Source: a virus (taxonomy: Duplodnaviria; Heunggongvirae; Uroviricota; Caudoviricetes). From it: a stretch of DNA of 64,000 nucleotides. The translations under genes and the position numbers were made by a program. The stretch is from the IMG/VR virus record IMGVR_UViG_3300011008_000003; one strand, given 5' to 3'. Below the pieces are notes generated by a model that had not been told where the DNA came from, did no database searches, and saw only the letters and a program-made list of their open reading frames with translations. Shown here piece after piece: positions 7,792 to 57,145 of this stretch. The first letter of the stretch is position 1. Each line of letters starts with the position of its first letter.

Positions 7792-8202
7792 TTAGTCCAA
7801 TACCGATAATGTGCTTTCAATATCAGAATTATATTCACGTTCAATCTTATATCTAAGATTTTCTCCTAACGCCTTGATTCCGTCTGCCATATCTTCGTAA
7901 GATTCGGCAATCCATCCTTTATGACGGTCTGTTGTATATCTGATTAACTGTTTACCGTCAACAATCCCGCCAATCGATTCCTTAATTGAGGAATAGACAG
8001 TAAACTTACCGGAATTTACATCCCATTCTACTCCGATAGCATGTTCAAATATAGGAGCGTCAGGACTAAGAAAGTCAAGATAAAGCCTGGGATGCTTATA
8101 ATAGCCGCGGACTTTATCTTTAAAGAAATCCGCAGTATAAACTGTAAGGCCTAACGACTTTATTAGTTTTATTGCCTTTGTCATTGATTTCGTACAGTAC
8201 AT
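7792..8202 (-). CDS. Paralog array 1 member
   Basis: LIKSLGL..HP.L..VEWD..IAESYED; ends YNSDIESTLSVLD. Confidence 0.8.
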   Translation of the reverse strand: MYCTKSMTKAIKLIKSLGLTVYTADFFKDKVRGYYKHPRLYLDFLSPDAPIFEHAIGVEWDVNSGKFTVYSSIKESIGGIVDGKQLIRYTTDRHKGWIAESYEDMADGIKALGENLRYKIEREYNSDIESTLSVLD

Positions 8203-8204
8203 AA

Positions 8205-8588
8205 TTAATCCAACGTGCTAAGGGTATCTGTTAAATCCATATTGTGGAAAAATACCATATAGTCTTTAAGTTCGTTCTTAATCGATTCGACTATTTGTTT
8301 CATCTGGTCGATAGACTTCGCATAATTAGCAAAACCGATAGCTTTCGGAAGAAGCTGGAAATTATCTCGAGTTCCGACAAGACAATCATAGATTTCGAAC
8401 TTACAAGTCTTCTGGTCCCAGTGAAATACTGTTTCACTCTTATGCATGAACATATTATTTTCTAATTTGGCGTCAATACCGTCATAGTTGGTATCAAACA
8501 CCTGTTCGCTTAACGTCGGCGTCAAACCGAGGTCATGTTCGATTATATGATAGACTTGAAAAATATCGAGAACAACTAAATCTTCCAT
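8205..8588 (-). CDS. Paralog array 1 member
   Basis: DLGLTP..FHWD..FEIYD; ends HNMDLTDTLSTLD. Confidence 0.8.
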   Translation of the reverse strand: MEDLVVLDIFQVYHIIEHDLGLTPTLSEQVFDTNYDGIDAKLENNMFMHKSETVFHWDQKTCKFEIYDCLVGTRDNFQLLPKAIGFANYAKSIDQMKQIVESIKNELKDYMVFFHNMDLTDTLSTLD

Positions 8589-8590
8589 AA

Positions 8591-8962
8591 TTACTCCAAA
8601 CAGGATAAATCTTCATCTATCTTATTATTATGATAATTGATTACGATGGTGTTTAAATTCTCTCGAACTTCTTTGATAACGTCTTTAATCTGTTCTACGG
8701 AATCAGCATAGACATTTCCTTCAGAAGAAAAATAGAAATTATCGTAAGATCTTGTCTTTCTTGTAGCTTGGATAATATTGGGATAAATCTGAACTCTCCC
8801 GTTATCTACATCGCACCAACATACCATAATGTAATCCTGGCCCTTTACGAGAGCAGGATGTTTGATTACGCCTTGCACGAGCTTTGCTTTACCATATTCA
8901 GGTTCAATACCTAATTCCTTAAGCAATGCTTCCGCTTCTTCTACAGTATCAATTTTTAACAT
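8591..8962 (-). CDS. Paralog array 1 member
   Basis: TVEEAEALLKELGIEPEYG..HPALVKG; ends HNNKIDEDLSCLE. Confidence 0.8.
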   Translation of the reverse strand: MLKIDTVEEAEALLKELGIEPEYGKAKLVQGVIKHPALVKGQDYIMVCWCDVDNGRVQIYPNIIQATRKTRSYDNFYFSSEGNVYADSVEQIKDVIKEVRENLNTIVINYHNNKIDEDLSCLE

Positions 8963-9342
8963 CAGTCTAACGCCTCCAGCGCTTTTTCGATATTGACGTT
9001 ATATATTTCAACATAATATTTGTCAAGAGTTTTTTTCAAATTTTTAACGGCATCGCAAAACTGTTCAGTTGTTATAATCGGTTTTTGCATTTTTGGAATC
9101 CTAAAACAAAATCTAGGTACTCCGGTTCCATCGTCGGACAAACGATTAATGTCAGTATACAGGTTTAAATTCTGACATACTGGTTCCCACTTTACAACAT
9201 AGTCAGAACCGCCAACTAATGCCGGATGGTCCATATAACCGCAATAGCATTCATCCAATGAATCTACAATCACATGCAGACCAGCTTCTTTCATAAAAGC
9301 TACAGCATCATCGTTTGTCGTTATTTCTGCGATTCTACCCAT
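8962..9342 (-). CDS. Paralog array 1 member
   Basis: FMKEAGL..HPALVGG..VVKW; ends YNVNIEKALEALD. Confidence 0.8.
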   Translation of the reverse strand: MGRIAEITTNDDAVAFMKEAGLHVIVDSLDECYCGYMDHPALVGGSDYVVKWEPVCQNLNLYTDINRLSDDGTGVPRFCFRIPKMQKPIITTEQFCDAVKNLKKTLDKYYVEIYNVNIEKALEALD

Positions 9343-9806
9343 TTTGACAATAATTCCTTAAATTCTTCAGTGCTCATATTTACAAGAGATGCTACTGAAG
9401 GCTGTTTATCATCGAGAACATTTAACGTTTTTTCAATATCTTTATTATATTCTTTGATAACTTTTCCTTTTATGCGTTCAATAAGGTCATTTTTAAGATA
9501 AGTAATTTCTTCTTTGTTTATAAGATACTTATTTCCGTCTAGTCTAGGTAACAATATGAATTCTATTTTTCCGTTATATTTTCTGGCTTTATATAATGTG
9601 TTATAAATTTCGAATTTAAAACTTCTTTCTAAATGGAGTAAGTCAAAACCATGCCATTTAATAAAATAACAACATCCATCATATAAATTGTCATGATAAA
9701 GCTCGGCACACAGCTTACCATTATCATACATGGTATCTAGTCCGAACTCATCCATGATTTTCTTTGCCTGTTTAAAAGTATATGCTTTTAGATACTTAAC
9801 TGACAT
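9321..9806 (-). CDS. Paralog array 1 member with C-terminal extension
   Basis: IMDEFGL..HDNLYDG..FIKW; YNKDIEKTLNVLD followed by extra residues. Confidence 0.75.
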   Translation of the reverse strand: MSVKYLKAYTFKQAKKIMDEFGLDTMYDNGKLCAELYHDNLYDGCCYFIKWHGFDLLHLERSFKFEIYNTLYKARKYNGKIEFILLPRLDGNKYLINKEEITYLKNDLIERIKGKVIKEYNKDIEKTLNVLDDKQPSVASLVNMSTEEFKELLSKWVESQK

Positions 9807-10216
9807 TATAATGCCTCTATTGCTTCGTCAAGTTCTTCAATTTTATCGTTTTTCATTCGTTCATATAGTTTACGGACGACATTATCGATTGCAGTACGAA
9901 GTTCTTTAATATTATCGATCTCGACATATTTAGCGCCTTCAGATTCAAATACATTAAATGAATAACCGCCATAAAGTCTTTCTATTTCTGTCGCGACACG
10001 GAACTTAAAATCACCGTTTATTAATATAAGTTGAATAATTGGAGTAGCGCCTTTACCAATTATTTCTGGTCCAAAATCTTTAGAACCTAAAACACAATTA
10101 TATTCGTCAAAAAACGGTCTAGCACGTTGGTCATCCATTTTAACATATACAAGACCAACTGCTTCGATTGACTTTTTTGCGGCATCGTAAACTTCGTCTA
10201 ATGATTTATAGTTCAC
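9806..10216 (-). CDS. Paralog array 1 (divergent) member
   Basis: SIEAVGL; ends KIEELDEAIEAL. Confidence 0.7.
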   Translation of the reverse strand: MNYKSLDEVYDAAKKSIEAVGLVYVKMDDQRARPFFDEYNCVLGSKDFGPEIIGKGATPIIQLILINGDFKFRVATEIERLYGGYSFNVFESEGAKYVEIDNIKELRTAIDNVVRKLYERMKNDKIEELDEAIEAL

Positions 10217-10652
10217 TTAAAACCTCTTCAACTTTTTCGTTATGGATTTCTACTGCAAGGTCAAAGACACGTTTCTTCGTATCGTTAAACCATTTCACCA
10301 ACTGTTCATGCCAGTCTGAACCGTTTATCGGCAGAATCTGTCTGGAATTCTTCTCGTCAGCACAGAATATGATACATGGAACATGCCTAATTTTATCATC
10401 AGCCGTCAATATCGTATCGGAAGTTTTTACAGGTTCATAAAGCAAAAATCCAGAAAATGGAGACCAACGCAATACAACGGTACGTTTCCTTCTTATAGCG
10501 TCGCTATGCCAATAACCGTATATGAATACCGTCTGCGGATTATCTTTGGCTTCTAGGCCAAGTTCTTCCATGACCTCTATGGCTTTGTCTGCCGTAAATA
10601 TATGACGTACGGTTGTCGTATTATTCGTAGGTTTATAAAAAGTATCACTCAT
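10206..10652 (-). CDS. Paralog array 1 member
   Basis: VMEELGL..YGYWH..VLRW; ends HNEKVEEVLSEL. Confidence 0.8.
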   Translation of the reverse strand: MSDTFYKPTNNTTTVRHIFTADKAIEVMEELGLEAKDNPQTVFIYGYWHSDAIRRKRTVVLRWSPFSGFLLYEPVKTSDTILTADDKIRHVPCIIFCADEKNSRQILPINGSDWHEQLVKWFNDTKKRVFDLAVEIHNEKVEEVLSEL

Positions 10653-10654
10653 AA

Positions 10655-11068
10655 TTAACCTTCAAGTGCGTCAAGTGCAGAATTAATTTCAAGATTATAA
10701 TAATGTACTCGATAGTCGTTCAGTTCTTTCGTGATTTTTGCCGCAATATCCCTAGGGTCTTCATTTTTCTTTAAATATCTGATTTTCCTCAATGAACGTA
10801 AAACGAATTTCTGCGGTTCAAGCTGGAAAATATCGCTATGGTCGGCGACTACATCGAATATCGTAAATTTGAAACTACTTTTCAACCCGTCTACCATAAA
10901 GCTGTTCCATACGATGAAAAATCCGGTTCCGCCCTGTAACATGTCGTTTTCTATCAAGGCGCCGATCTGTTTGTCACTGCAAATGAACGTAGGCCTATAT
11001 CCGAAGGACTTAAGAAATTCGTATGCCTGGTTTTTCGTAAAGCAAATTTTATCATCAAACATAATCAA
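10655..11068 (-). CDS. Paralog array 1 member
   Basis: FLKSFGY.P..LQGG..FIVW; ends YNLEINSALDALEG. Confidence 0.8.
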   Translation of the reverse strand: MIMFDDKICFTKNQAYEFLKSFGYRPTFICSDKQIGALIENDMLQGGTGFFIVWNSFMVDGLKSSFKFTIFDVVADHSDIFQLEPQKFVLRSLRKIRYLKKNEDPRDIAAKITKELNDYRVHYYNLEINSALDALEG

Positions 11069-11433
11069 CCCAAATCGTTAAGTGCGTCCATTGTTTCGCG
11101 GTTACAGATTGTCAAGTAATACTTATTGATTTTCTTTTTCATGTCTTTAAATTTCTTATCAAACTTTTCTTCCCAGTCGAATGTATCGGTCGAAATATAT
11201 TTCCTGAATTCGTCGCGTGGAAACGTAAATTCGATAATACGACCAGCCCTGTCATTACGTTTCGTAAAGAAACAAAATCCTTTATCACGGTCCCACATGA
11301 TAACTCGCCGAGAAGCCCAGCCGTGGAGTTTTTCAAAAATCGGGTGTTCGTAAATACCGTAAAGTATTCCCATACCATACTCTACTTCCAGTCCACGTTC
11401 TTTTAAAAAATCTGCTGCTTGGTTCATAAACAT
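11065..11433 (-). CDS. Paralog array 1 first gene (leaderless)
   Basis: Start corrected to ATG 6 nt after TATATT; FLKERGLEVEYGMG..HP..VIMWD; ends NRETMDALNDLG. Confidence 0.8.
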   Translation of the reverse strand: MFMNQAADFLKERGLEVEYGMGILYGIYEHPIFEKLHGWASRRVIMWDRDKGFCFFTKRNDRAGRIIEFTFPRDEFRKYISTDTFDWEEKFDKKFKDMKKKINKYYLTICNRETMDALNDLG

Positions 11434-11439
11434 GTGTAT

Positions 11440-11474
11440 AATATAATAAAAAGGGTGACTTTCGTCAACCCTTT
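11440..11474 (-). promoter_or_regulatory. Fused terminator / early promoter heading array 1
   Basis: GGGTTGAC-GAAA-GTCACCCTTTTTAT-TATATT; 17-bp spacer. Confidence 0.85.
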
Positions 11475-11497
11475 CCTTATCTCCATTATACCCAAAT

Positions 11498-11797
11498 TTA
11501 CTTCCAGCTATTACAGTCTTCAGGGAAATGCTTTGCACATTGAAGCATCTTGCCGATACCGTAAGAGCAATGCTGACAATGCTTGCACTGTTCAGGTACA
11601 TTCAGAACGAATTTCTCAAGGAAATGCTTTGCGTCTTCCATAGTCATACAGCTGATTGTATGAGACATAGTACGGTCGGCGTAATGCCAAACCGAAGCGA
11701 AGTTTTTCCAGAAGAACCAGCCCTTCCATTGCGGAAGATAACAGCTGTCGTTAACCTTCTTGATTCGATACTTGTTGCCGATTTTCAGAATTTCCAT
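11498..11797 (-). CDS. Hypothetical protein with C-terminal Cys cluster
   Basis: YLPQWKGWFFW; CKHCQHC..C..C. Confidence 0.6.
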   Translation of the reverse strand: MEILKIGNKYRIKKVNDSCYLPQWKGWFFWKNFASVWHYADRTMSHTISCMTMEDAKHFLEKFVLNVPEQCKHCQHCSYGIGKMLQCAKHFPEDCNSWK

Positions 11798-12173
11798 TTT
11801 TATTTCCCCGTTCTAAGTTTGCAATTTTTTGTTCAAGCATTTCGATTTTTTCTCGATTCCATTTATCGAGCCATGGTCCGTTTACCGCCCAGAAACGTTC
11901 GTCGATACTACATGCGGCCAATTGTCCGTATTTATCAGTCAAACGATTTCGTTTAAACTCGGCTAGCTGTTCTGGTCTCATCCGCCTTTTGTCTTCAGTA
12001 GTAATTTCAAAAATACTCGGTTCAGAATCAACCTTATGACCGTCGTGAGCATATAAGGGCGTAACGCTTATGACCGGATATGAGATCTTACCCCAGGATT
12101 CGTTAATCCCGATTGAAATTACCGGATTGCCATTAATTTTTTGTAATTCTGCGATAAGATCTTCTTTTCTCAT
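11751..12173 (-). CDS. Hypothetical protein
   Basis: 140 aa in operon. Confidence 0.65.
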   Translation of the reverse strand: MRKEDLIAELQKINGNPVISIGINESWGKISYPVISVTPLYAHDGHKVDSEPSIFEITTEDKRRMRPEQLAEFKRNRLTDKYGQLAACSIDERFWAVNGPWLDKWNREKIEMLEQKIANLERGNKNGNSENRQQVSNQEG

Positions 12174-12174
12174 G

Positions 12175-12495
12175 TTAAATCATTCCCCAGTGCTGTACGA
12201 GACCGATAATCAAAAGGACAAACATCGGAATGAATGCCAAGAACTTAAAAAGTCCGACAATCTTTCCTGTAATCATTTGCAAAAAGCCGCCGCCGATTAT
12301 CAGCAGGAATAAAGTTGCGACAATGATACCGATAACGAAAGCCAAGATTCCGCCGTATGAAATTGCAAAGGCACACATGCCAATTTCAAGTACGTCAAAG
12401 ATAACAACAGGAATGCTTCCCTTTTCACCGAAAAGCTGCTTAACCAGGTCGATACCTTCGTAAATTGCGAAAATGGTTAGAATTGTTGCAAGCAT
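12175..12495 (-). CDS. Membrane protein (3-4 TM)
   Basis: Hydrophobic; AAGGAG SD. Confidence 0.7.
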   Translation of the reverse strand: MLATILTIFAIYEGIDLVKQLFGEKGSIPVVIFDVLEIGMCAFAISYGGILAFVIGIIVATLFLLIIGGGFLQMITGKIVGLFKFLAFIPMFVLLIIGLVQHWGMI

Positions 12496-12509
12496 TGTTT
12501 ATCTCCTTA

Positions 12510-12944
12510 TTAGAAAAATGAATGACCGTAAAAATTGATGCAAGCCTGACGGAGTTCTTCCCTGGTCGGCGTATGATAGCTGTCCTTTCCGGTAAGCTTC
12601 TGGACAACCGAGCGAGCGACCTCATGCTGGAGCCTATCGCGACGTTCGTCGTCATAGAAAAGTTCAGGACCGCAATCAGGAACTTCGTTGAGTTTCTTGC
12701 AAATCTGGTTAAAACGCTTGCCAATGTCCTTGATAATTTCCGCATCGGCCTTATCCTTGAACGCTCCCATTTCCTGGAACGTGAAGTAGGACTTACCGTC
12801 CTTATTTTCAAAACCTTTCATATGCGGCCAGTATTTTGCGCACCAGGAACAGTTTTCACCGGCGCCGTCTGACATCTGACCGCTGAGGCCGTCAAGCATG
12901 TCAATTTCATCTTTAGTCATTGTAGGAATTTCAATAGTCTTCAT
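12510..12944 (-). CDS. Hypothetical protein
   Basis: Start corrected to MKTIEIP downstream of promoter element 12972-13010. Confidence 0.7.
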   Translation of the reverse strand: MKTIEIPTMTKDEIDMLDGLSGQMSDGAGENCSWCAKYWPHMKGFENKDGKSYFTFQEMGAFKDKADAEIIKDIGKRFNQICKKLNEVPDCGPELFYDDERRDRLQHEVARSVVQKLTGKDSYHTPTREELRQACINFYGHSFF

Positions 12945-12971
12945 TTTATACCTTTTTGGTTCGATATATTT

Positions 12972-13010
12972 AATATAGCAAAAGAGTTGACTAGTGTCAA
13001 CCCCCTTTTT
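12972..13010 (-). promoter_or_regulatory. Fused terminator / early promoter
   Basis: GGGGTTGAC-ACTA-GTCAACTCTTTTGC-TATATT; TTGACA-17-TATATT. Confidence 0.85.
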
Positions 13011-13419
13011 AATCAAGAACATTTAACAATTGTTCCATTTCCTTATTCTTGTCGTTCGTAATGAGCTTAACGATTTTCTTTTTTACGACGTTTATCGCAT
13101 AATTTAAATCTTCCGGTTCATTTGCATAAAGCATATGCTTGTGTGAACACATGAGAATCATTCCGTTTTCATGTTTTCTATTGTTAAGCCAACATACCGA
13201 CGGGAATATACCGATACGTTTATTTCTGATGTCCCAGGAAAATATAGCGCTTTTACCGTGAGATAGATATTCATTTTTCAAATGTCCATGAATAGATAAC
13301 GGCGAAACAAGAATCGGATCGTCTTCTTCAATTATAAGGTCATACGATTTGAATAACTCCTTTACTTCTTCAGGAGTTTCTATCTTCAAATTTCCGTTTT
13401 CTTTATATTTCGAGTACAT
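13009..13419 (-). CDS. Paralog array 1 family, dispersed member
   Basis: TPEEVKELFKSYDL..HG.L..IFSWD..YANEPED; ends NKEMEQLLNVLD. Confidence 0.75.
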   Translation of the reverse strand: MYSKYKENGNLKIETPEEVKELFKSYDLIIEEDDPILVSPLSIHGHLKNEYLSHGKSAIFSWDIRNKRIGIFPSVCWLNNRKHENGMILMCSHKHMLYANEPEDLNYAINVVKKKIVKLITNDKNKEMEQLLNVLD

Positions 13420-13420
13420 A

Positions 13421-13735
13421 TCAATCCAAAACTTTAATAATTTTATTTACATTTCTGTTATGGATAAATTCAATATCGATTTTCCAGCCGTTACGCAGAA
13501 GATCCTGTATCAGACAGAACGGAGAATAGTTTTCGAAAAGATGTTCATTTGTATCTACGTCATAAAGTACATATTGGTCTTCCCAATGATCGACTTCATG
13601 GGAATGAATATATACTTTACGTTTATTCCGGTCACGGTCGATTACTATAAAGTGTTCATCTATAGTAAAATCTACCAGTAATTTCCAGAGGTCGTCGATT
13701 TCTCGCTGTGACGGTTCATATACCCAGTTTTCCAT
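13421..13735 (-). CDS. Hypothetical protein with family-type C-terminus
   Basis: Ends HNRNVNKIIKVLD. Confidence 0.65.
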   Translation of the reverse strand: MENWVYEPSQREIDDLWKLLVDFTIDEHFIVIDRDRNKRKVYIHSHEVDHWEDQYVLYDVDTNEHLFENYSPFCLIQDLLRNGWKIDIEFIHNRNVNKIIKVLD

Positions 13736-13736
13736 A

Positions 13737-14297
13737 TTATTTCCTGATACTGTCAAAGTCCTTGATGAGCTTTTTAACTATATGCTCATTTTCTTCTTTT
13801 CGCTGCTGAGCTTCTTCTGCCTTCTTCTGCTTGCGTTCATCAACGGAAACAAAATAAATCGGGAGCTTATAGAAGAAGAAATACAGAGTAGCGAGAATAC
13901 TCTTGAACAACATCGCAATTGCCCAGACGATTGTAAGAGTCGTCCAGTTGAATACAGGACCCAATACCATCATGCAACTGACATTGACATAGAAATAACC
14001 AAGCTTCTGGTTTTTCTCCTTGTTTTCACCACGAGATTCTGTCAGGACTGCGCCGTAAAGGAATATCGCAAACGCTAAGATAATGTAGAGCACGCAGAAA
14101 AATGCTAGCAAAACCGGATGTTCAGCCCAGACCATATCAGGCCAGCCGAAAACAAACGGAGTATTGGGATGAGTACAGGCACCGATTGCCTGCAGGACGA
14201 ACATAATCGCTGTATATGTAAGCAAAACTGCAAACCATGCACAGTTTACGAGTTCACTGTTCCAGTTAATGGCTTTCTTGAATTTAAACAAAGACAT
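13737..14297 (-). CDS. Multi-pass membrane protein
   Basis: Four hydrophobic segments; TAATG coupling with upstream gene. Confidence 0.7.
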   Translation of the reverse strand: MSLFKFKKAINWNSELVNCAWFAVLLTYTAIMFVLQAIGACTHPNTPFVFGWPDMVWAEHPVLLAFFCVLYIILAFAIFLYGAVLTESRGENKEKNQKLGYFYVNVSCMMVLGPVFNWTTLTIVWAIAMLFKSILATLYFFFYKLPIYFVSVDERKQKKAEEAQQRKEENEHIVKKLIKDFDSIRK

Positions 14298-14780: not shown

Positions 14781-14818
14781 AATATAGAAAAAGGGTTGAC
14801 TTGCGTCAACCCCTTTTT
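14781..14818 (-). promoter_or_regulatory. Fused terminator / early promoter
   Basis: GGGTTGAC-GCAA-GTCAACCCTTTTTC-TATATT. Confidence 0.85.
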
Positions 14819-22692: not shown

Positions 22693-22932
22693 TTAATTTC
22701 CCTCGTTTTTTATATAATCGGTATCTTGATTTAATGCGATATAGTTAAACGGTATCGACGTCAAGTTGTCTTTGTACTGTTTTTTCGTAAATCGCCTTAA
22801 TTCCCTGGTAAAATCATCGAAAAGTCTTTGCCTGCCAAGCGGAGACAAATTCTGTTTCGCACCCCTTAGTTCTTTTTCATACTTCAAAATTACCTGGGCG
22901 GCTTCGTAATCATCATAGTAAGAATTTTTCAT
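22693..22932 (-). CDS. Hypothetical protein
   Basis: ATGA coupling. Confidence 0.6.
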   Translation of the reverse strand: MKNSYYDDYEAAQVILKYEKELRGAKQNLSPLGRQRLFDDFTRELRRFTKKQYKDNLTSIPFNYIALNQDTDYIKNEGN

Positions 22933-23303
22933 AATTCCTCTAACATGGACTCTATTTCATACTGCTTCAGCCTCAATGCGAACGTAAGTGGATCTCCGTA
23001 CAGCAGTCGAAACATGTCGCCGGTCGAAATCCGTAAAACCGCCATCCATGTCCTATAAGGAACTGAATCTGAAACCGCTATCATCTGGCGCCCATATCCG
23101 GTTTTCCCTTTGTTATATATCCTAATAAAATACTTGCCTGAATTGACCTGTATCAACGAAATATCGAACCCGCCGCCGCTGAAACAGTATTCGAGTGTCA
23201 TTCCTTCCAGCGTACCAGCCTGCTGCACGGTCATCAGTGTCCATCCGTAACGCATCAGCTCGTCATAAACGGAATTTACGCTATAAGTAAGCAGTGGAAT
23301 CAT
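22929..23303 (-). CDS. Hypothetical protein with family-type C-terminus
   Basis: Start corrected to MIPLL (ATGA overlap); ends YEIESMLEEL. Confidence 0.6.
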   Translation of the reverse strand: MIPLLTYSVNSVYDELMRYGWTLMTVQQAGTLEGMTLEYCFSGGGFDISLIQVNSGKYFIRIYNKGKTGYGRQMIAVSDSVPYRTWMAVLRISTGDMFRLLYGDPLTFALRLKQYEIESMLEEL

Positions 23304-26971: not shown

Positions 26972-27032
26972 TTGAAACTCCTATTTTTATTATTTATAAG
27001 AAAACCGGCAATCATTGATTACCGGTCTCGTA

Positions 27033-28127: not shown

Positions 28128-28157
28128 TTATTCACCTTTGTAATAAAAACTTTACAT

Positions 28158-28203
28158 TATTTATAAATAATATATGGTGTTAGTAACGGTAATTACTAAC
28201 ACC
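28158..28203. promoter_or_regulatory. Overlapping divergent late promoters plus hairpin
   Basis: Palindromic TTATTTATAAATAA, then GGTGTTAGTAA-CGGTAA-TTACTAACACC. Confidence 0.65.
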
Positions 28204-28227
28204 TACCAAACACAATGAGGTAGCATT

Positions 28228-35222: not shown

Positions 35223-35223
35223 A

Positions 35224-43147: not shown

Positions 43148-44315
43148 CTAGCAATATTCCTCATCAGGCAGTTCGCGGTGGTTAGCGAAATACTTCAAAG
43201 CCTCGACAATTTCATCAATTGTCTTGACGTTAATATAACCCTGAAGGTAGTTATTATCGTCATAGTGATTCATCGCTATATAATCATCGTTTTCATCGAC
43301 ATCGACAATTACGTGATGTTCGTTTTCCTTGATGAACGCACACTGGTAATCACGGTCGTAAACTGCCTCGTCGATTCCGAATTTCTTTGCAAGTCGTTTC
43401 TTAGCCTTTACAGCCTCGACGATTTCTTTGGTTGTTGGTTTTTCCATTATTCTAATCCTTCCAGACAATATTCGTTATACTTGTTAGCAAGTATCATGTT
43501 ATAATAGTCAGTTTTATCTTTCAACATTTCCATATCGTATTCTTCACCGTCAATAGAAAGAATATATTTCGAATATTTATCTTCGCCCTTAACCTTATCT
43601 TTGTCGAGGTCTCTGAAACTTGCAATATTAATATACCGACCAAATCCGCTAGAGTCATTCGGCCATATAGATTTTTCCATTTCCACCGCTACGATATTTG
43701 CAATATAGGAAAAATGCATAATACCATCCTGAGACTTCAGAAAATTCTTGCTGAACGGGTTGAAAAAACCTTTTTCTCGAATCTTACTTGGTTTAGTTCC
43801 GCTACATACGACATTTTCCGCATATTTCAAAGTAATCGTACCAGGAAAAAAGGCACGTTCGTACTTATATTTCTTTTCCGACTTGGAATATTCAAACACT
43901 TTAATGAAATACGGGACATTCATCATTTTTACCTATGTGACTTCTTATGCTTATTGCATACGTTAGTGCTTGTTACGGGATGCATAGGCGAGCCGTGGAC
44001 GTACTTTGGCTCTCGCCTTTCTAGTTCTATGCCCTGACCGAAACGGTAAGTCCTGAGGGCCTCTATTTCGCCGTTAAGCTTGTCCCCTATGAGTTCATTT
44101 GCATATTTCTTTGTAATATAGTCTTCGCCAGATACCTGAACGAGATATTCAATATCAGGGTGACGACAACATGTACATTCGTACAAACAATCGTAATAAT
44201 TTTCATCCTTATTACGGTTCAAATAATGTTTCCGGTCTTTACAAAGCTTATAGCCCAGGTACTTCTCGACATCAGCTAACTTATAAAAATCTTCTCTATC
44301 GTAATACTGTGGCAT
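43148..44315 (-). other. Three hypothetical genes (43148-43468, 43447-43926, 43929-44315) behind early promoter 44338-44366
   Basis: CTTACA-17-TATATT; coupled ORFs. Confidence 0.6.
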
Positions 44316-46608: not shown

Positions 46609-47066
46609 AACATGCCCATCAATGCACCTTCGTTTTCGATGTCTTTGACACGCTTTACCATGTCGTATGTCAAAGTATTTAATTTCTTTTCTTTATAATC
46701 TAAAATCGCCGAATAATTATCTTTGAAAAACCGTATATGGTCATTGATAAACCAATATAATTTACTCAAATGCTCCATACAAAACCAGTCGTAAAATTCA
46801 TCTTTAGTTACGCTGAACTGGAACATAAGAAAGGCTGTATTAAAATAATCGTCTGGAACATCTGTCATGAAAACTTCGGCAGTTAAATACTCTCGTTCTA
46901 CTGTCCATAAGATTCTAAAATCATTGAATTTAAATAATATACAGTTATTTACGTCATTGTTATGACTATATGAATAATCAATCCAATGTCGGTCAGCATA
47001 TTCCGGTAAGATTCTATGTAAAATACGAGACTGCCAATCGCTTAGCATTTTAATTTCATGACTCAT
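46605..47066 (-). CDS. Hypothetical protein, paralog of 50022
   Basis: LMFQF....EFYDW shared with 50022. Confidence 0.65.
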   Translation of the reverse strand: MSHEIKMLSDWQSRILHRILPEYADRHWIDYSYSHNNDVNNCILFKFNDFRILWTVEREYLTAEVFMTDVPDDYFNTAFLMFQFSVTKDEFYDWFCMEHLSKLYWFINDHIRFFKDNYSAILDYKEKKLNTLTYDMVKRVKDIENEGALMGML

Positions 47067-47443
47067 AGATTATCAATCTCCATTTCCGTTCTGATATTTT
47101 CCAGGTAATAATTTACTTTATCAACGAATAATTCAATACTTCCGCAATCGCTAAATTTGACTTCCTTATCTTTATAATGAAAAATCGGATTATTCGACGC
47201 AAAAATATACGAATTCGCAAATTTGCTATTCGGATTTCTATAAGCTCGTTCCGGTAAATTTTTATACTTACGTCTAATATCGGTAAGTAATTTTCCTAAG
47301 AAAACAATATCTTTCGAATAAGGCGAACCGATAAAGAGTAGACGTTCCGGACTTACTTCGAGACAATTGTAACGTACTTTAGAAAATAACCGGGATTCAT
47401 ACCGGATATACGGAATATCTACTAACGGGACAAATTTTTTCAC
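47063..47443 (-). CDS. Hypothetical protein with family-type C-terminus
   Basis: Ends NIRTEMEIDNL. Confidence 0.65.
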   Translation of the reverse strand: MKKFVPLVDIPYIRYESRLFSKVRYNCLEVSPERLLFIGSPYSKDIVFLGKLLTDIRRKYKNLPERAYRNPNSKFANSYIFASNNPIFHYKDKEVKFSDCGSIELFVDKVNYYLENIRTEMEIDNL

Positions 47444-50023: not shown

Positions 50024-50522
50024 AAATAGCAAGTAATTCTACTTCTGTTTGTAAATCTCTTCGCCATTGATGATATTCATACGGTATGGTGTCCATTTCG
50101 TGGTTCGGTATTCCCATTGAATTATGGATTGCATCCTTCGTAATGTACGGTTCCCACTTTTGAAAATATGGAATAAATTTCAACGTCAAGTCGATAGTTT
50201 CTTTCAGCTTGTCATTTGTGAGCCAGGCAAAAAACTCCGTATCTTTATATTCAAACTGATACATTAAAACAGAATTTCTGAAAGTCTTATGTTTGACTGC
50301 ATAATCAGGCTCAACATAGTATGCACGAATATCGATTGCGTTTCTGTCTACTCTCCACTTGAAATTAATCTCGAAACATGGTCCAAGGATTTCGACAGTA
50401 TCGCTTGCTGCAGACGGATAAACACGCATATGGCTCATATAGTAAGTATTACCATAAACAGCCATAAACGTATCTTTTATACGATGTGCAAATTCTGAAA
50501 AATCAAAATAAGACATAGACAT
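50022..50522 (-). CDS. Hypothetical protein, paralog of 46605
   Basis: LMYQF....EFFAW; ends LQTEVELLAI. Confidence 0.65.
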   Translation of the reverse strand: MSMSYFDFSEFAHRIKDTFMAVYGNTYYMSHMRVYPSAASDTVEILGPCFEINFKWRVDRNAIDIRAYYVEPDYAVKHKTFRNSVLMYQFEYKDTEFFAWLTNDKLKETIDLTLKFIPYFQKWEPYITKDAIHNSMGIPNHEMDTIPYEYHQWRRDLQTEVELLAI

Positions 50523-51631
50523 TAACAGACATAGCCTTCTGCGAATTTTCCAGTAACATTATCCTTAAGGATTTTCGGAATAATGCAACCGGCCTTGGTT
50601 ATAATAACTTCATGTCCGATTTCAAGACCGAGAGCCTCGATACATGCGACATTGGCGAGGCTTGCACGCTTAACGGTAGTTCCGCAAAGTTCGCAAGGTT
50701 CGCAGATTGCGACCGGAGTAAGAGTTCCATTCCTGAGAGACCATTCAATATTGATAACTTTAGTCGTGGCAAGTTCATACTTCGGCTTCAAAGCAATGGA
50801 ATACTCAGGAAGATAATTAGTTTCCAAGTCTTCATAATCGATGTCAGAAGTCTTCCATACGATACCGTCAATATCGTAATCTCGATCCTGCTTCCAGACC
50901 TGCTCCATAAGGTCGATAGCCTTCTGACCGTTCATGGACTTAAGGTCATAAATCGTGTACTCGACAACATCGAAACCCTGTGACTTCATCCAGTCGAGCA
51001 TATCGACCTGAGTGGCGAAACGGGCATAACGATTACGGGCTTCATAAACCTTGACATTGAGCTTATCGCAGTCGGCGCCGTCGAGATGCTTCATAATACC
51101 AGAAGCTGCATTTCGACAATTCTTATACTGAGGGAAATACTGTTCACGGACAGAACGGTAAAGAAGGATTTCACCGCGAATAGTTCCAGTATACTCATCC
51201 TTGAGCTTCTTCGGAACATTTCGCATACGCTTGACGTTTTCGGTAATATCGTCACCGGTTTCACCGTCACCGCGAGTAATTGCCTGAACGAACTTACCAT
51301 TTTCATATTCAAGGGCGATAGAACAACCATCGAGCTTCAACGGGGCGACAACGTATTCATGACCAGCCATTCGACACTTGTTGAACCATGTGTCCATTTC
51401 AGGAGCCGTATTGGCCTTATTCTGAGAACCCATGATAATCGAGTGCTTTGCCTTGGCAAAACCGTCGGTATGATCCGAACCGACAACCTTGAGAAGTTCG
51501 GAATCCGGATATTTGGTTTTCAGTTCGTCCCAGAGTGCATCGAATTCGATGTCGCTCATGATAGGAGAGTCAGAGTTATAATAGGCATCCTGTGCCTGAC
51601 GGAGTTTTGCTTCAAGTTCGTTCTTATTCAT
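50522..51631 (-). CDS. ligA: NAD-dependent DNA ligase, C-terminally truncated (Ia + adenylation + OB only)
   Basis: YY..P..SD.EFD, KLDG, TRGDGETGDDIT, RGE, RNAASG, DGIVWK, GTLTPVA, RASLAN, KAGCIIP; no Zn/HhH/BRCT. Confidence 0.85.
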   Translation of the reverse strand: MNKNELEAKLRQAQDAYYNSDSPIMSDIEFDALWDELKTKYPDSELLKVVGSDHTDGFAKAKHSIIMGSQNKANTAPEMDTWFNKCRMAGHEYVVAPLKLDGCSIALEYENGKFVQAITRGDGETGDDITENVKRMRNVPKKLKDEYTGTIRGEILLYRSVREQYFPQYKNCRNAASGIMKHLDGADCDKLNVKVYEARNRYARFATQVDMLDWMKSQGFDVVEYTIYDLKSMNGQKAIDLMEQVWKQDRDYDIDGIVWKTSDIDYEDLETNYLPEYSIALKPKYELATTKVINIEWSLRNGTLTPVAICEPCELCGTTVKRASLANVACIEALGLEIGHEVIITKAGCIIPKILKDNVTGKFAEGYVC

Positions 51632-51637: not shown

Positions 51638-51673
51638 AATATAGCAAAAACTAGAGGACTTGTCAACCCTCTA
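51638..51673 (-). promoter_or_regulatory. Fused terminator / early promoter (variant stem)
   Basis: TAGAGG-GTTGACAAGT-CCTCTAGTTTTTGC-TATATT; ATG 6 nt downstream. Confidence 0.8.
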
Positions 51674-54097
51674 AATCAGAAATAGCCCCAACAGATTCGC
51701 AATAATTCAGAGTAGCGGCGTCAAAAGCTCGCATCTTAGTTCCGTTGATTTCTATTTCCGCATTTTCATCAATAAAAAATTTCCTGCCTTGCGAATCCAG
51801 TGCTGCATACAATCCCAAGTTGTAAAGAATATCAGTTATTGTAGCTTCTCTACCATAAATCGTAATTTTAACATTTGTCTTTGTAGTCATATCTTTATCC
51901 ATCAAGTGCATCCAGTATATTCAATGTTCTACAGGACTGAATAAAAGCGTTCACATCGCCTTTGTTATCCATCCTGTAATCTATACCTTCCAATTCGATA
52001 ACCATATCCAGTGTAGGCAATATAATCGTATCGTCACACTCGATATAAGTAATGACTTCCAAATCTTCGTAATTATTACTGCTCGTAGAAATCTTAACTA
52101 CGTTATATTCTTCACCGTCTATCTTTATCCTAGCCATTTAAATTATCCAATGCAAGTTCTGTCATAATATTATTATAAAATAAATCTAATTCGCCGGATT
52201 TCTTAAAATCATACATTTTACCGTTATATTTGACATACCGAATATACATCGGGCTAAGCGAATAACGATTTAATGTCGTTGTTCCAGACTTCGATGCCCA
52301 TAAATATACACCATATATCCTATATTCGTTTTTCCAGGGCTCACAAGAACGTACATAGTAAGTATGGTTTTTTCCGTCTATTTTAAACCTTACCGATGTA
52401 CTCATAATTTTTCCAGTGCAAGCTCTGTCTCAATCGCGTTATAGAACATCTCGGCGTCATGTTCTTTCTTAAAATCATATGTTCTTCCGTTATACTTAAC
52501 TTCAGTAATGTCGCCGTAATCATTTATCCATGCTTGTCTAATTCCTGGAGGATCCGACTTTCCATCCCATATTGGTTTCGGATAAATACGTTTAACATTC
52601 AAACACACACCAAAAATTCTTTCAGGTCTGCCTCCGCCACCTTCGACAGAAGATGAACAGTCGAATACCTGATACAGTTTCGGAATCTTTTCGTATTTTG
52701 TTCTGAACATTACCTTAATCATAAACACTCCAAAGCCAAATCAGTCGAAAGTTTCTGATACAGGACTTCAACTTCTGTCTCATTGCACATATTGTATTGC
52801 TTGCCCTGATAGATAAGCTTATTTGCCGGCATTCCTACGCAGACCCAAATATCTTCAATCAACGGCTGAATTATTGTATTACATGTTCCCCAGACTTTTT
52901 CTGATTTTTTATGAGATGGCGGCGGAGTAAATTTTGTCTTAACCAATGCTCTAACCTTTAAGTTAACTCCTTCCAAAACATCTCTTTGTGCAGTAAATGA
53001 AAAACGTCTAATCGTATTACAGCGTAAAACTTGATAATCAGCATGATTTATTGTTACTCGTATCATTTCAAATCCTCCAATGCGACTAATGTATTGAATG
53101 TCTGAATAAACGCATCAACGTCATAGGCAGAATCCATATGGTAAACCTTTCCGTTCATTTCTATCTTTTGACTCGGGGTAATTACAATAAAACCAAATGT
53201 CCCACGTTTGGTAGCATAAACTATAGAATTAATTTTGTTTGACGGACAATTTTCAATATCAGAGAAAAAACTTTCATCCGACATATTAATACTTTTAGCA
53301 TTATATACTATATCATAAATTTTAATCGGTATCATATCTGGTCCAACAAGTACAAAAGTTTACAATGTTCTTCAAATTTAATATTATCCCATTCATCGGC
53401 TATATTATATTCGACATTATCCATTTTTATAACGGATTTTTCAATGCCAAGCAAATGAGTAGAGTCAGCTGTTTCGCTCACTTTATAAACTATGCCTGTT
53501 ACATGCTTTCCGTTAAACGACTTAAGCAATTTCGTAACATAGACAGTTCTCCAGAAGTTATCCTTATTCCGTTTCAGTTCCATTTTAATCATAGACTATC
53601 CAGTGCCTGTACTGTCAAAAACGTGTTTTCAAACATCTCATTTTCTGCGATATTAGCGACTCTGAACTTATAACCGTTAAATTCTACACAAGAATACTCA
53701 TTGAAACAATAAATAGAATCATCATACAGCAATACTCCGTCAACAGACTTACTGTTGAACCCTTTCAGTATCATCTTTACAAACATAAAGACTCCATCGA
53801 TTTTCATAGAGTAGAACTTATTCATCCCGCCAACTCCTCAATCGACTGAATTGTATCAAATGCCTGTTGAAGTTCTTCCTCGTCGGCAGGCATTTCAACA
53901 CCGTTAATCTTTACTTTATAAACGCCCCGTAAAGAAATCTTTGTTTCTTGTCCTTTATGATTCAATACGCAAATACTCGTAACCATATCATAGATACTGG
54001 TGCGAATATACCCAGTCGCCTTGACATTAAGCTCGTATGTATGCTTTTCATCATTAGACCGATAAATTATTGTCATCGGAATCGGATTAGAAATCAT
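51663..54097 (-). repeat. Paralog array 2: nine tandem small genes (51663-51890, 51895-52137, 52130-52405, 52402-52728, 52719-53066, 53063-53335, 53332-53592, 53589-53825, 53822-54097)
   Basis: Shared I.IDG..Y.V ... (Y/M/I)NG..Y.(M/F) ... F...T..AL(E/D).L. Confidence 0.8.
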
Positions 54098-54483
54098 ATC
54101 AATGCCCTTTCTATTTCAATTTCATTAATTTGCGAATCTAGCCAAAGTCGAGACTTCATATAATCATTGCCGAATTTCTTGTACAGGTCATATGCAAGGA
54201 TTGCCATCTCAGAATGTATAGGCGCTTTAAAATACGGATCCGAAAATGTTTTCGGCATTATGCCAGTATTCCATATTTCTTCCAATACATGTGCATAAAA
54301 TTCATTACAGCGATAATCGCTAATACAAAACTGTGCGGCAGTATTTGAAAGTACGTTCATACTAGGATCGTTATACTTATACTCGTGTCCCTGTTTCTTT
54401 TCTATTTCCAGAATATGAGCATAATAAGTATATCTTGCAAGTTGAACGACATAACGGCGAAGATCTTCTGATATTGGGTCCAT
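54094..54483 (-). CDS. Hypothetical protein (leaderless, heads array 2)
   Basis: ATG 6 nt after TATATT; ends INEIEIERALI. Confidence 0.65.
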   Translation of the reverse strand: MDPISEDLRRYVVQLARYTYYAHILEIEKKQGHEYKYNDPSMNVLSNTAAQFCISDYRCNEFYAHVLEEIWNTGIMPKTFSDPYFKAPIHSEMAILAYDLYKKFGNDYMKSRLWLDSQINEIEIERALI

Positions 54484-54489
54484 ATTCAC

Positions 54490-54523
54490 AATATAGAAAA
54501 AGGGATGACTTTCGTCAACCCTT
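54490..54523 (-). promoter_or_regulatory. Fused terminator / early promoter
   Basis: AAGGGTTGAC-GAAA-GTCATCCCTTTTTC-TATATT. Confidence 0.85.
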
Positions 54524-54875
54524 ATTTAAGTCTGTCTATTTCCTTAAGTTCATTAAACAACTGACCAAATGCGACTTGTTCATCATGGTTCCACAATCTG
54601 AACGTATGCCCGCCAAGTTCGACGACTTCTGTACGAGTTAACGGAACAAATGTCATCTGCAGTTTAGATTTACGGTTTGCACCGTATACCTTATCCTTCC
54701 GGTTTCTACTTTGAGGCGCCGGAGTATATGTAAATGGTCTTAGGAAATAAATTCCGCCAATCTGATTATAAACCCGCTGAGTAGGCCATTCAAATATTAT
54801 TTGCTTTGACCAATAGACTTTTTCAACATTATTATAAACTAGATTGTTGATTTTTACACTTACCATGGACGTCAC
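54522..54875 (-). CDS. Paralog array 2 family member
   Basis: VKINNLVY..V...VELGGHTF.L...FNELKEIDRLK. Confidence 0.65.
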   Translation of the reverse strand: MTSMVSVKINNLVYNNVEKVYWSKQIIFEWPTQRVYNQIGGIYFLRPFTYTPAPQSRNRKDKVYGANRKSKLQMTFVPLTRTEVVELGGHTFRLWNHDEQVAFGQLFNELKEIDRLK

Positions 54876-56082
54876 CCTTGTAGAGTTTCTTCAGTTCACG
54901 ATTTGTCTTCATCCAGAGATCCGGACGAACACGGTCGATAGAACCGAACTTGATAGCGTTAATAGCGATACCGACATACTGCTTGCACTTATATTCCGTC
55001 GCGACTGCTACGGCTGTCTCATAACGAGTACGAGCGTCTTCGATACCGGAAATTCGAGTTACGATACCCTTGACCTTTTCCAAGGCTTCAGCATAGTAAC
55101 GCTCAACAATTCCGACGTAATTACGCATACCAGCGAGCTCTTCCGGAATGAACTTCACATAGTCAATATCGACTACGCCAGTCATACAGTCGAAATGGTC
55201 GCGGATAGACTTGTACGTAATGCAGTTAATACGTTTAAACATCTCGATATATTCATCACCCTTGACCTTCAAACGGAACTTGACCGGATAACCGTTGATA
55301 GTATGTGCAGAATTGAAAGCCAACACATAACCTTCATAGTTAAGGTCAAGCTTCTTGGCCTGGTCCACACAGTCCTTCAGATTCTGATAACCAGTAATGA
55401 CTTCCGTTACAGGTACGCCGATTTCCTTAGCCAACTTTTCAAGGTCAGCTCGCGGATATTCAAGATGGGTCGCATAGAAAGCGCTAAGCAAAGTCAATCC
55501 TTCGTAATCGTAATGAACTACGTGAACATCGTCCTTGCTCGTAGATTCGAAACAGTATGTTTCTCCGTCAATAAGCTTGCTTGCATCTACATGGTCGTCA
55601 AACCACTTCTTAGCCCAGATTGCCTGTTCAGAATAGAAGCTGCCCGGAGTCTTCAAAATCCAGTCATCCTTATACTTGAAACAGATAATCAGAGAACCGT
55701 CAATCTTGTTAGTCGCCAAAAACGAACCGGCAATGCTCGGCTCGAATTCCTTAAAACGGCTGATAATCTTACCGGTCTCGGCATAGGTTCCGTCTTCTGC
55801 AAAGATTTCAGAATAGTTAAAGAACTTGTCGAACGGATGTGCGACAATCTTACCAGTCTTCTTTTCGAAAACGATACCGCGGCACTGCATAGTCACCTTG
55901 TCCCAGTGACCTGCATAAGTCGTAGCAAGGCTATACTTGAAACCGACCAAATCTTCAGTTTCATGCTTGGTAAGCCAGCCCTTGCGGACATAGCGATAAC
56001 ACTTCTTCATGAAAAGCCAAGACTTAAACGCCTTCCACTTTTCGCCTAAATCAAATTTGATTCTGTAGTATAAGTTAATCAT
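54832..56082 (-). CDS. RNA ligase 1 (T4 Rnl1/RnlA-like)
   Basis: QCRGIVF, PFDKFFN, motif I KIDGS, TYCFE, YEGYV, KVKGDEY. Confidence 0.85.
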   Translation of the reverse strand: MINLYYRIKFDLGEKWKAFKSWLFMKKCYRYVRKGWLTKHETEDLVGFKYSLATTYAGHWDKVTMQCRGIVFEKKTGKIVAHPFDKFFNYSEIFAEDGTYAETGKIISRFKEFEPSIAGSFLATNKIDGSLIICFKYKDDWILKTPGSFYSEQAIWAKKWFDDHVDASKLIDGETYCFESTSKDDVHVVHYDYEGLTLLSAFYATHLEYPRADLEKLAKEIGVPVTEVITGYQNLKDCVDQAKKLDLNYEGYVLAFNSAHTINGYPVKFRLKVKGDEYIEMFKRINCITYKSIRDHFDCMTGVVDIDYVKFIPEELAGMRNYVGIVERYYAEALEKVKGIVTRISGIEDARTRYETAVAVATEYKCKQYVGIAINAIKFGSIDRVRPDLWMKTNRELKKLYKGDVHGKCKNQQSSL

Positions 56083-56387
56083 AGCTCCTCTATTGCAAAT
56101 GCTTCTTCTAAAGCGTCTGCCAACATTTTTCGTTCTTCGTCTTTACTGACATTAAAAGTTAAACCGTTATAGTCTACATAATGATTCTGCATCCAACCAT
56201 GAATATTGCTTGTTCCCCAAAGGTCAATCAATTCCGGTAAATCATATTTGTTTTCTTCTGGCAACCATCGTTCGACCGATAATACTGGATGAGCCATGAA
56301 ACTATCCTTCGGAGTGAAGTCAAATCTACCGTTATGGTAAAATCCCCGAACTTTATACTTTTCATCGCTAACCTTTATCTCAATCAT
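56079..56387 (-). CDS. Paralog array 2 family member (leaderless)
   Basis: VDYNGLTFNV; ends ALEEAFAIEEL. Confidence 0.7.
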   Translation of the reverse strand: MIEIKVSDEKYKVRGFYHNGRFDFTPKDSFMAHPVLSVERWLPEENKYDLPELIDLWGTSNIHGWMQNHYVDYNGLTFNVSKDEERKMLADALEEAFAIEEL

Positions 56388-56417
56388 ACGTAAAATATAG
56401 TTAATATTCTACGGAGG

Positions 56418-56738
56418 TTAACCCTCTAAATTTTCTATCGACAATTCTGTCTTTAATGCGTCATACAGCATGGCTCGTTCCGGAGGCAAATCCATATCAT
56501 AAATTCTGCCTGCATATTCAATCGACTGCAAATCACTGTTAATAAGCTGTAACTCTTCCATACCGTAATAAGTAGTCGTTACCTGAACACCGTTTACCGT
56601 AATTACGCCGTCGACTCGCTTTGCGATAATTTCAGGAATCCATACGAAGTCATCTTTTTCTGACATGGACTCATATTGGTGCAAAAAATCCAGGACTTCA
56701 TATGTTCTTCCAGTCTTTAAAAACTTGATTACTGCCAT
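56418..56738 (-). CDS. Paralog array 2 family member
   Basis: IEYAGRIYDM; ends ALKTELSIENLEG. Confidence 0.75.
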   Translation of the reverse strand: MAVIKFLKTGRTYEVLDFLHQYESMSEKDDFVWIPEIIAKRVDGVITVNGVQVTTTYYGMEELQLINSDLQSIEYAGRIYDMDLPPERAMLYDALKTELSIENLEG

Positions 56739-56740
56739 TT

Positions 56741-57145
56741 TTACTCCAACTGGTTAATTGCCGTTACAGTATTAAAGTTATGCTCAATTATCGACATGAT
56801 ATGCCTGACATACTTATAGAAATCAGACATTTTCGGACAACGCATATCAAATTCAGGTTCCTTAATTTCAAATCTCTCATCGCCAAAGATAAGTGTATCG
56901 TTTATGAAAATATCCATACACTCATTTACTTCCTCAGCGGTACCGGTATCTTCAGAAACCATGATACACGTATACCAGATTTCGAATAACGGAACACGGT
57001 CAATAAGGCACGGATTATAACACCAATCCGAAATATCCTCATTATCTTCGCAATCGTCGACTACGCACTTGAACTTGATATTGTACGAATTGTCGATATA
57101 TTCGTACTTATTGTCTTCGCCACGTATAACCTTAATATTCCTCAT
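56741..57145 (-). CDS. Hypothetical protein (leaderless), family-type C-terminus
   Basis: Ends FNTVTAINQLE. Confidence 0.65.
   Translation of the reverse strand: MRNIKVIRGEDNKYEYIDNSYNIKFKCVVDDCEDNEDISDWCYNPCLIDRVPLFEIWYTCIMVSEDTGTAEEVNECMDIFINDTLIFGDERFEIKEPEFDMRCPKMSDFYKYVRHIMSIIEHNFNTVTAINQLE

Follow-up and report, generated by a model that had tools for sequence, protein, structure and literature searches.

The window analysed here, a 64,000-nucleotide stretch of an uncultured T4-like jumbo phage (IMG/VR record IMGVR_UViG_3300011008_000003), is a densely packed, mostly minus-strand region in which about a fifth of the genes encode proteins that end in a common peptide, which we call the tail. 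Numbered back from its final leucine (position 0), the tail has Ile or Leu at -12, Asn or Gln at -10, Thr, Ile or Val at -7, Ala at -4, Leu or Ile at -3, Asp, Glu, Asn or Ser at -2 and Leu at 0, with 0-2 further residues before the end of the protein. Its carriers are ORFans of 70-200 amino acids, most of them members of two paralogue arrays. A first-pass annotation of the same DNA had drawn attention to these C-termini, and all of those that it quoted were present, on minus-strand open reading frames (ORFs) and in the places that it gave.

Tail-bearing genes of the window

Since the paralogues of the window are not independent of one another, tails were scored with a model trained outside it. 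The training genome was IMG/VR contig UViG_3300023371_000061 (hereafter G001; 411,059 bp, 98% complete), a distant relative that was analysed whole and that is 53% identical to the window over a 472-amino-acid protein (window positions 57214-58632). A 14-column log-odds model built solely from G001 tails was run over every position of each window protein with a cut-off of at least 6 bits, and a match within 0-2 residues of the end was counted as C-terminal. Array 1 (7419-13756) comprises 12 paralogues that are similar over their full length (family 1):

7419-7844, minus strand: family-1 paralogue with a borderline tail (9.2 bits; full-length BLAST and alignment with family 1)
7792-8202, minus strand: family-1 paralogue with tail (8.0 bits; family-1 alignment)
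8205-8588, minus strand: family-1 paralogue with tail (11.6 bits)
8591-8962, minus strand: family-1 paralogue with tail, the member modelled with AlphaFold2 (AF2) (8.7 bits)
8962-9342, minus strand: family-1 paralogue with the best tail of the window (20.5 bits)
9321-9806, minus strand: family-1 paralogue with an internal tail (15.3 bits at the internal position)
9806-10216, minus strand: family-1 paralogue with tail (12.0 bits)
10206-10652, minus strand: family-1 paralogue with tail (17.7 bits)
10655-11068, minus strand: family-1 paralogue with tail (19.1 bits)
11065-11601, minus strand: family-1 paralogue with tail (8.4 bits)
13009-13419, minus strand: family-1 paralogue with tail, last gene of its operon (11.8 bits; a promoter/stem-loop follows)
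13421-13756, minus strand: shortened family-1 member with tail (10.9 bits; family-1 alignment)

In the 7419-7844 product the last Leu is followed by Val, and its orthologues end in Leu-Asp. In the 9321-9806 product, a natural instance of a tail that is not terminal, the tail stops at residue 131, and the 30 residues beyond it form an extension conserved among relatives. The A-[IL]-E-x-L end of the 9806-10216 product is kept in ~40 orthologue clusters. The gene at 13421-13756 had been taken for an unrelated singleton; its product aligns with family 1, and representative P0213 was recovered by the family-1 profile. An exhaustive HMMER search of 1.84 billion proteins with that profile recovered no more than 44 representative clusters. 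Of the full-length representatives, nearly all end in the tail, and ~40 diverged ones retain it. Long multi-stretch matches of the profile to proteins of 1327-2766 amino acids look like repeat or low-complexity artefacts.

Array 2 (51663-57145) holds ~13 members of a second family, whose similarity lies mostly in the last 30-70 residues, and is broken by a non-carrier ORF (54094-54489) and by the gene for an Rnl1-type RNA ligase (54832-56082):

51663-51911, minus strand: family-2 member with a degenerate tail (-8.3 bits; family-2 alignment)
51895-52137, minus strand: family-2 paralogue with tail (7.9 bits)
52130-52405, minus strand: family-2 paralogue with tail (11.0 bits)
52402-52728, minus strand: family-2 paralogue with tail, the member modelled with AF2 (14.6 bits)
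52719-53066, minus strand: family-2 paralogue with tail (16.2 bits)
53063-53335, minus strand: family-2 paralogue with tail (10.0 bits)
53332-53592, minus strand: family-2 paralogue with a degenerate tail that ends in Ile, not Leu (BLAST and alignment; orthologues end likewise)
53589-53825, minus strand: family-2 paralogue with tail (8.5 bits)
53822-54097, minus strand: family-2 paralogue with tail (9.3 bits)
54522-54875, minus strand: family-2 member that closes an operon ahead of a promoter/stem-loop; its tail is weak (3.4 bits)
56079-56387, minus strand: family-2 paralogue with tail (6.2 bits)
56418-56738, minus strand: family-2 paralogue with tail (12.3 bits)
56741-57145, minus strand: family-2 member with tail, first gene of array 2 (9.2 bits; family-2 profile, P0100 group)

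The final codons and stop of 51663-51911 overlap the -35 box of a promoter/stem-loop (TTGACA-17-TATATT, 51666-51638). The body encoded by 54522-54875 clusters with those of 52719 and of G001 62540. As with 13421, the earlier listing of 56741 as an unrelated singleton does not hold, since its product aligns with family 2.

Three carriers lie outside the arrays:

22929-23381, minus strand: tail carrier (16.4 bits)
43447-43926, minus strand: additional tail carrier (7.4 bits), with a tailed G001 orthologue (190533-191057)
47063-47443, minus strand: tail carrier (9.6 bits)

Orthologues of 22929 keep L-[ED]-x-L in 33 of 33 clusters and are 124 amino acids long; to judge by them, the true start of 22929-23381 is probably internal. 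Its tail is strong, but its standing as an unrelated singleton is weakened by a weak alignment with family 1 (hhalign, E = 0.04 over 67 columns), of which it may be a remote member. Neither 43447 nor 47063 could be linked to family 1 or family 2 by iterative profiles after the tails were trimmed. Two further candidates of the first-pass annotation, 50022 and 54094, scored -7.3 and -7.7 bits, respectively, and lack the tail. In place of its total of ~28 tailed proteins, the count here is 24 clear cases, four degenerate family members (51663, 53332, 54522 and the borderline 7419) and the internal tail of 9321. A tail-like segment (14.4 bits) also occurs in the 67-residue ORF at 39939-40142, where it ends at residue 31 and is followed by Pro-Asp-Asp and 33 further residues; this ORF may represent a fusion or read-through of a former stop.

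Enrichment, selection and expression class

C-terminal matches to the tail model were found in 24 of the 124 window proteins, compared to 0.27 expected from internal positions, while non-C-terminal matches of at least 6 bits were confined to 12 of 16,744 internal windows and a single N-terminal window. The first-pass annotation had named composition-matched C-termini as the comparison on which its motif should be judged. When the last 20 residues of each protein were shuffled among themselves (1000 trials), the mean number of matches was 0.41 and the maximum 3, against the 24 observed, so that the motif withstood this comparison. With the G001-trained model, the tail is enriched ~60-90-fold over internal positions and composition-matched shuffles. 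In the reverse test, a window-trained model scored on G001 matched 40 of 653 proteins, compared to 0.95 expected. None of the 87 mostly early ORFs in the first 50 kb of phage T4 matched the model. A chance origin of the tail is ruled out by the internal-position and shuffle controls.

A looser expression for the core of the motif ([LI][DESN]xL followed by 0-2 residues, with expectations taken from internal positions) matched 9 of 12 family-1 and 12 of 13 family-2 proteins, 6 of the 99 remaining window proteins (1.35 expected) and the ends of 59 of 653 G001 ORFs (8.75 expected), the latter distributed over many arrays. Its matches at 27033 (UDP-galactopyranose mutase) and 21107 were rejected outright by the tail model, and that at 46039 fell below the 6-bit cut-off; the Phe-rich end of a G001 amidase, at 13.8 bits, is probably a chance match. 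Columns that were not used in picking the training set, namely Ala at -4, Thr/Ile/Val at -7, Asn/Gln at -10 and Ile/Leu at -12, concur between the window and G001 and between the families, indicating a module of ~14 residues. The eight-residue pattern first proposed falls short of the full module.

Orthologous DNA for array 1, to which the substitution analysis pertains, came from three metagenome contigs (78-96% identity) and yielded 22 gene pairs. Over the last 14 codons, the proportions of nonsynonymous (pN) and synonymous (pS) differences were 0.017 and 0.17, giving a ratio of nonsynonymous to synonymous change (dN/dS) of 0.087. The corresponding values for the bodies were 0.054, 0.24 and 0.19 (tail versus body, Fisher p = 0.025). 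Because the gene pairs are phylogenetically related, we regard this contrast as supportive rather than decisive.

We also considered whether Leu-Glu/Asp-x-Leu might be a by-product of nucleotide signals, being forced on the protein by the Shine-Dalgarno (SD) sequence, ATGA overlap or -35 box of the next gene. Among window and G001 carriers, Glu at -2 is encoded by GAG in 24 of 32 cases, compared to ~13% of Glu codons genome-wide, with TTA and CTA over-represented at the last Leu; both features fit a GGAG SD and an ATGA overlap for the following gene. The -2 position is thus dual coding, with the GGAG/GAGG of the next gene lying inside the conserved peptide. Translational coupling is likewise commoner in carriers than in other genes (odds ratio 2.0), and 51663 supplies an overlap with a TTGACA box, although overlap of the tail with a promoter signal is confined to a few operon ends of this kind. 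However, 255 coupled genes are without the tail, 102 of them with SD-like ends that encode unrelated peptides, and 40 of the 86 carriers counted in the window and G001 together are uncoupled. Furthermore, the invariant Leu positions use all six Leu codons, no SD reaches the conserved residues at -4 (Ala), -7 (Thr) and -10 (Asn), and the tail gains synonymous changes while replacements are suppressed. On the strength of codon use, coupling counts and dN/dS, we rejected the view that the tail is caused mainly by SD or promoter constraint, and its origin as a mere by-product of such signals is scarcely credible. Taken together, these findings support the view that the tail is a selected, peptide-level and almost exclusively C-terminal element: selection acts on the peptide, and the SD overlay exists without explaining the motif.

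The carriers' operons were classified by their promoters. Five composite promoters of the form TTGAC[AG]-17-TATATT lie inside or beside 10-14 bp hairpins with T-runs:

57152-57192, minus strand: sigma70-type promoter in a 14-bp stem-loop (TTGACA-17-TATATT), directly upstream of array 2
14781-14817, minus strand: sigma70-type promoter in a 13-bp stem-loop (TTGACG-17-TATATT), for the operon running into array 1
12972-13001: promoter and hairpin past the end of the 13009 operon (TTGACA-17-TATATT at 13000-12972)
51638-51674: promoter/stem-loop at the end of array 2 (TTGACA-17-TATATT at 51666-51638)
54518-54490: promoter/stem-loop after 54522 (TTGACG-17-TATATT)

The T4 late motif TATAAATA precedes other genes, for example that of the 472-amino-acid protein. 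In the window, carriers make up 23 of 67 genes in operons with early-type promoters compared to 3 of 32 in those with late-type promoters; in G001 the respective figures are 26 of 157 and 4 of 164 (p = 1e-5). Because the carriers concentrate in operons with sigma70-type promoters, the earlier description of them as early proteins is supported, the class itself being assigned by analogy with T4.

Bodies, terminal helix and possible roles

Neither Pfam nor PHROGs gave a match above cut-off for 12 family-1 and 14 family-2 members. After the last 14-16 residues were removed from the 86 carriers, BLAST joined almost none of them, and iterative profiles left 66 unlinked groups. In hhalign comparisons of family 1 with family 2, using shallow or deep alignments, only the last 10-12 columns aligned, end to end, with a probability of at most 1%. 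The AF2 model of the 8591 product (family 1; predicted local distance difference test score, pLDDT, 79.6) consists of a helix, six strands and a 34-residue terminal helix (residues 89-122), with pLDDT falling to 63-70 over the last 13 residues, while that of the 52402 product (family 2; pLDDT 70.2) has eight strands and a 19-residue terminal helix (residues 89-107). Fold searches with both models (Foldseek against PDB and BFVD, and a wider structure search) returned nothing above noise. For the family-1 body, the best resemblance was to a YbjN/type-III-chaperone-like alpha+beta sandwich (Z 5.1, DUF419), which is within the noise range, as were matches to chaperones and AmyR (Z 3.4-4.5) and to an Atlas YbjN cluster (TM 0.56). 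For family 2, a weak lead to an ATP-synthase-epsilon-like beta-sandwich (Z 4.0) was likewise not above noise. Because the AF2 models differ and hhalign similarity is limited to the tail columns, two or more body architectures appear to bear the tail. The differing N-terminal domains noted at first pass are thus borne out as predicted alpha+beta and all-beta folds, a result that does not extend to true unrelatedness of the families.

In both AF2 models, the tail is the end of the long predicted C-terminal alpha-helix. Positions 0, -3/-4, -7 and -10 would share one helical face, composed of Leu, Leu and Ala together with polar Thr and Asn/Gln, an arrangement that would suit an interface, and in both families this terminal stripe is rotated by ~100-120 degrees from the hydrophobic stripe further upstream in the same helix. 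Positions -10/-7/-3/0 also fit a coiled-coil a-d-a-d pattern with Asn/Gln at 'a', over only about two heptads and with a different register upstream. The carriers are soluble and are not membrane proteins; their bodies are neutral and their tails acidic, the net charge of the tail being -0.088 per residue (about one net negative charge) compared to 0.000 in other small proteins. Beyond the last Leu there are no residues in 23 of the 86 carriers and D, P, K, E, G, PG, EG and the like in the others, which by their sequence would serve as typical helix caps. Since this overhang varies, recognition anchored on the free carboxylate is argued against.

We propose that the tail is a constant interaction helix whose face (0, -3/-4, -7 and -10) would bind one surface in every carrier. 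That surface could belong to a common hub protein of the phage or its host, or to the same helix of sister proteins, which would then form homo- or hetero-oligomers; the fast-evolving head domains would supply differing functions on the common tail. A shared docking or assembly helix is our best reading of the tail, and we put its chances at about even. We infer all three of its parts, namely the interface role of the conserved face, a single partner for all carriers and the heads as effectors, and the data are accounted for about equally well by self-assembly through the helix and by docking to a hub. The common docking, localisation or degradation tag on adaptor heads suggested by the first-pass annotation agrees with this reading as regards a selected C-terminal helix and differing bodies; its degradation variant, if carboxylate-anchored, is unlikely given the varying overhang.

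Several observations weigh against a docking or assembly helix. Within the family-2 model, confidence is highest in the terminal helix (pLDDT 79-86), which fits packing of that helix against its own sheet. The dN/dS contrast derives from three related contigs and one array, and mean tail entropy is not uniformly below body entropy within orthologue groups. The bodies evolve so fast that, judging from sequence, all carriers could share descent, with the helix as their slowest-evolving structural element; the helical-face argument is itself drawn from sequence. Finally, no partner of the tail was found.

Some of these points are shared by the main rival explanation, which we consider less likely: that the carriers form one deep, explosively diversifying superfamily descended from a sheet-plus-helix ancestor, in which the helix is the best-conserved structural or self-packing element, with neither an external partner nor portability. 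The carriers do occur as tandem paralogue arrays, two supposed singletons belong to the families, a third shows a weak alignment with family 1, and no carrier has an unrelated Pfam domain, chance-level matches aside. The AF2 models all place a sheet before a terminal helix, and the weak fold leads are generic alpha-beta-alpha sandwiches to which the last helix is integral. What such a superfamily accounts for less well is the difference in predicted topology (an N-terminal helix and six strands versus eight strands and no such helix), the profile-profile probability of at most 1% outside the tail, and the composition of the stripe, in which polar Asn/Gln and Thr and small Ala, rotated off the packing stripe, are unusual for generic core packing against bodies that have no motif in common.

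We also asked whether the tail might time the removal of early proteins by passing them to a protease or unfoldase of the host or phage, to be cleared later in infection. Its C-terminal placement and its confinement to early-type operons would suit such a role, as would the gene for a phage M16-type peptidase that adjoins array 2 in a late operon. In contrast, the free carboxylate lies at a variable distance from the last Leu, the ends carry polar or charged residues instead of non-polar ones, and the tail is predicted to lie within a continuous helix rather than a flexible segment. The fixed motif-to-end register and non-polar terminal residues of ssrA/ClpX- or Tsp/PDZ-type signals were not found among the 86 carriers. 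We therefore consider a degradation or timing tag unlikely.

A further precedent is the sliding clamp, to which the tail might tether early proteins in the manner of T4 gp43, gp55 and gp33, whose interchangeable C-terminal epitopes bind the clamp (PMC2988020). The clade is T4-related, and the end of T4 gp43 has the second-best tail-model score in T4, though at just 2.1 bits. The polymerase ends were compared in G001, the window's own polymerase lying outside the window. The gp43-like polymerase of G001 (85625-88910) is split into two overlapping ORFs of 735 and ~360 amino acids, the second with the presumed clamp-binding end; that end is aromatic-acidic (Met-Phe-Glu-Phe-Phe-Ser), as in RB69 and T4, and not Ala-Leu-Asp/Glu-x-Leu. 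For this reason, we did not class the tail as a clamp epitope. The tails are moreover without aromatic residues and, in the AF2 models, are not on flexible linkers, and ~60 clamp clients per genome would be unprecedented. Searches of G001 with BLAST, phmmer, tblastn and PF09116 revealed no homologue of T4 gp55, gp45 or gp62. Clamp binding by the tail is, in our estimation, very improbable.

Neighbouring genes and comparison with known systems

Megablast and tblastn searches of GenBank phages gave no nucleotide match to the window and no match to the array proteins, and the best matches to its NAD-dependent DNA ligase are <36% identical. The metagenomic relatives of the window are contigs of 411-428 kb. 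As G001 encodes homologues of T4 gp41, UvsX, gp43, gp44, gp46, gp47 and RegA, we regard the clade as T4-related. The identifiable genes of the window encode an NAD-dependent DNA ligase, the Rnl1-type RNA ligase, a CCA-adding enzyme, a major facilitator superfamily (MFS) transporter, a patatin, an M16 peptidase and UDP-galactopyranose mutase. Those beside array 2, and those of a low-GC (guanine plus cytosine) island, are located as follows:

50522-51631: NAD-dependent DNA ligase, directly downstream of array 2 and behind the promoter at 51666-51638
58719-59837: M16 (insulinase-type) peptidase, adjoining array 2, in a late operon with TATAAATA at 60741-60748
27000-36000: low-GC island (24-31% GC versus ~39%)
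27033-28127: UDP-galactopyranose mutase, in the island
28228-29259, plus strand: DUF7487 protein, in the island
29877-30725 and 33261-34100: paralogue pair, 47% identical, in the island

The island resembles an acquired cassette for glycan modification and has TATAAATA sites of its own.

The setting of the arrays is one known from T4-type phages. In two studies (PMC2839356, PMC4122927), PeSL cassettes are described as composite elements of an early promoter and a stem-loop between small early genes, and PeSL regions as the site of fast turnover of small early ORFans in the hyperplastic regions of these genomes. The arrays described here, punctuated by sigma70-type promoter and stem-loop elements, fit the definition given there. 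PeSLs, as portrayed in those sources, are intergenic DNA elements, whereas the tail is an in-gene peptide with varied codons.

The closest known system to the tail itself is that of the T4 clamp epitopes, in which gp43, gp55 and gp33 share interchangeable hydrophobic-acidic C-termini that dock them on the clamp (PMC2988020). Both are hydrophobic and acidic and stand at the extreme C-terminus of otherwise unrelated proteins. The T4 epitope is aromatic and occurs on three replication and late-transcription proteins, that of gp55 being on a flexible linker (PMC2988020). In contrast, the tail is Leu/Ala-based, conserves Asn and Thr upstream and is continuous with a long helix. It is also carried by roughly 10-20% of early ORFans and differs from the end of the clade's own polymerase.

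Short peptides common to otherwise unrelated proteins of the T4 family are also known at the N-terminus. The capsid-targeting sequence (CTS) of T4 internal proteins is an address label on late virion proteins that is cut off by the prohead protease. Unlike the CTS, the tail is C-terminal, is encoded behind early-type promoters and shows no cleavage motif.

No part of a large phage genome is understood less well than its small early ORFans, in which functions in host takeover and anti-defence are suspected to lie. With a selected, shared handle, ~25 genes of the window (~60 in each related genome) become a single class open to experiment, and the tail provides a sequence rule by which the effector set may be picked in related metagenomic phages. 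A single tail peptide is a potential bait for the partner, be it a host machine or a phage scaffold, and the variable heads could be treated as a binder library sharing one chassis. Should the helix drive self-assembly instead, the early proteins would form combinatorial hetero-oligomers, which would likewise be new.

No description of such a C-terminal tail was found in the searchable literature. In F-box, SOCS-box and poxvirus PRANC proteins, and in SspB with its ClpX-binding C-terminal tail, a short box docks varied heads onto one machine; families of this constant-box, variable-head kind expand and diversify rapidly, and the box is often C-terminal. The tail has no sequence relationship to any of these, and its carriers are single-domain phage proteins of 70-200 amino acids, such that the analogy is one of logic only. 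A phage system of constant tails and variable heads, in which dozens of early ORFans per genome would plug their heads into a single hub, is possible though doubtful; if it exists, it would be the bacterial-virus counterpart of F-box and SOCS-box logic.

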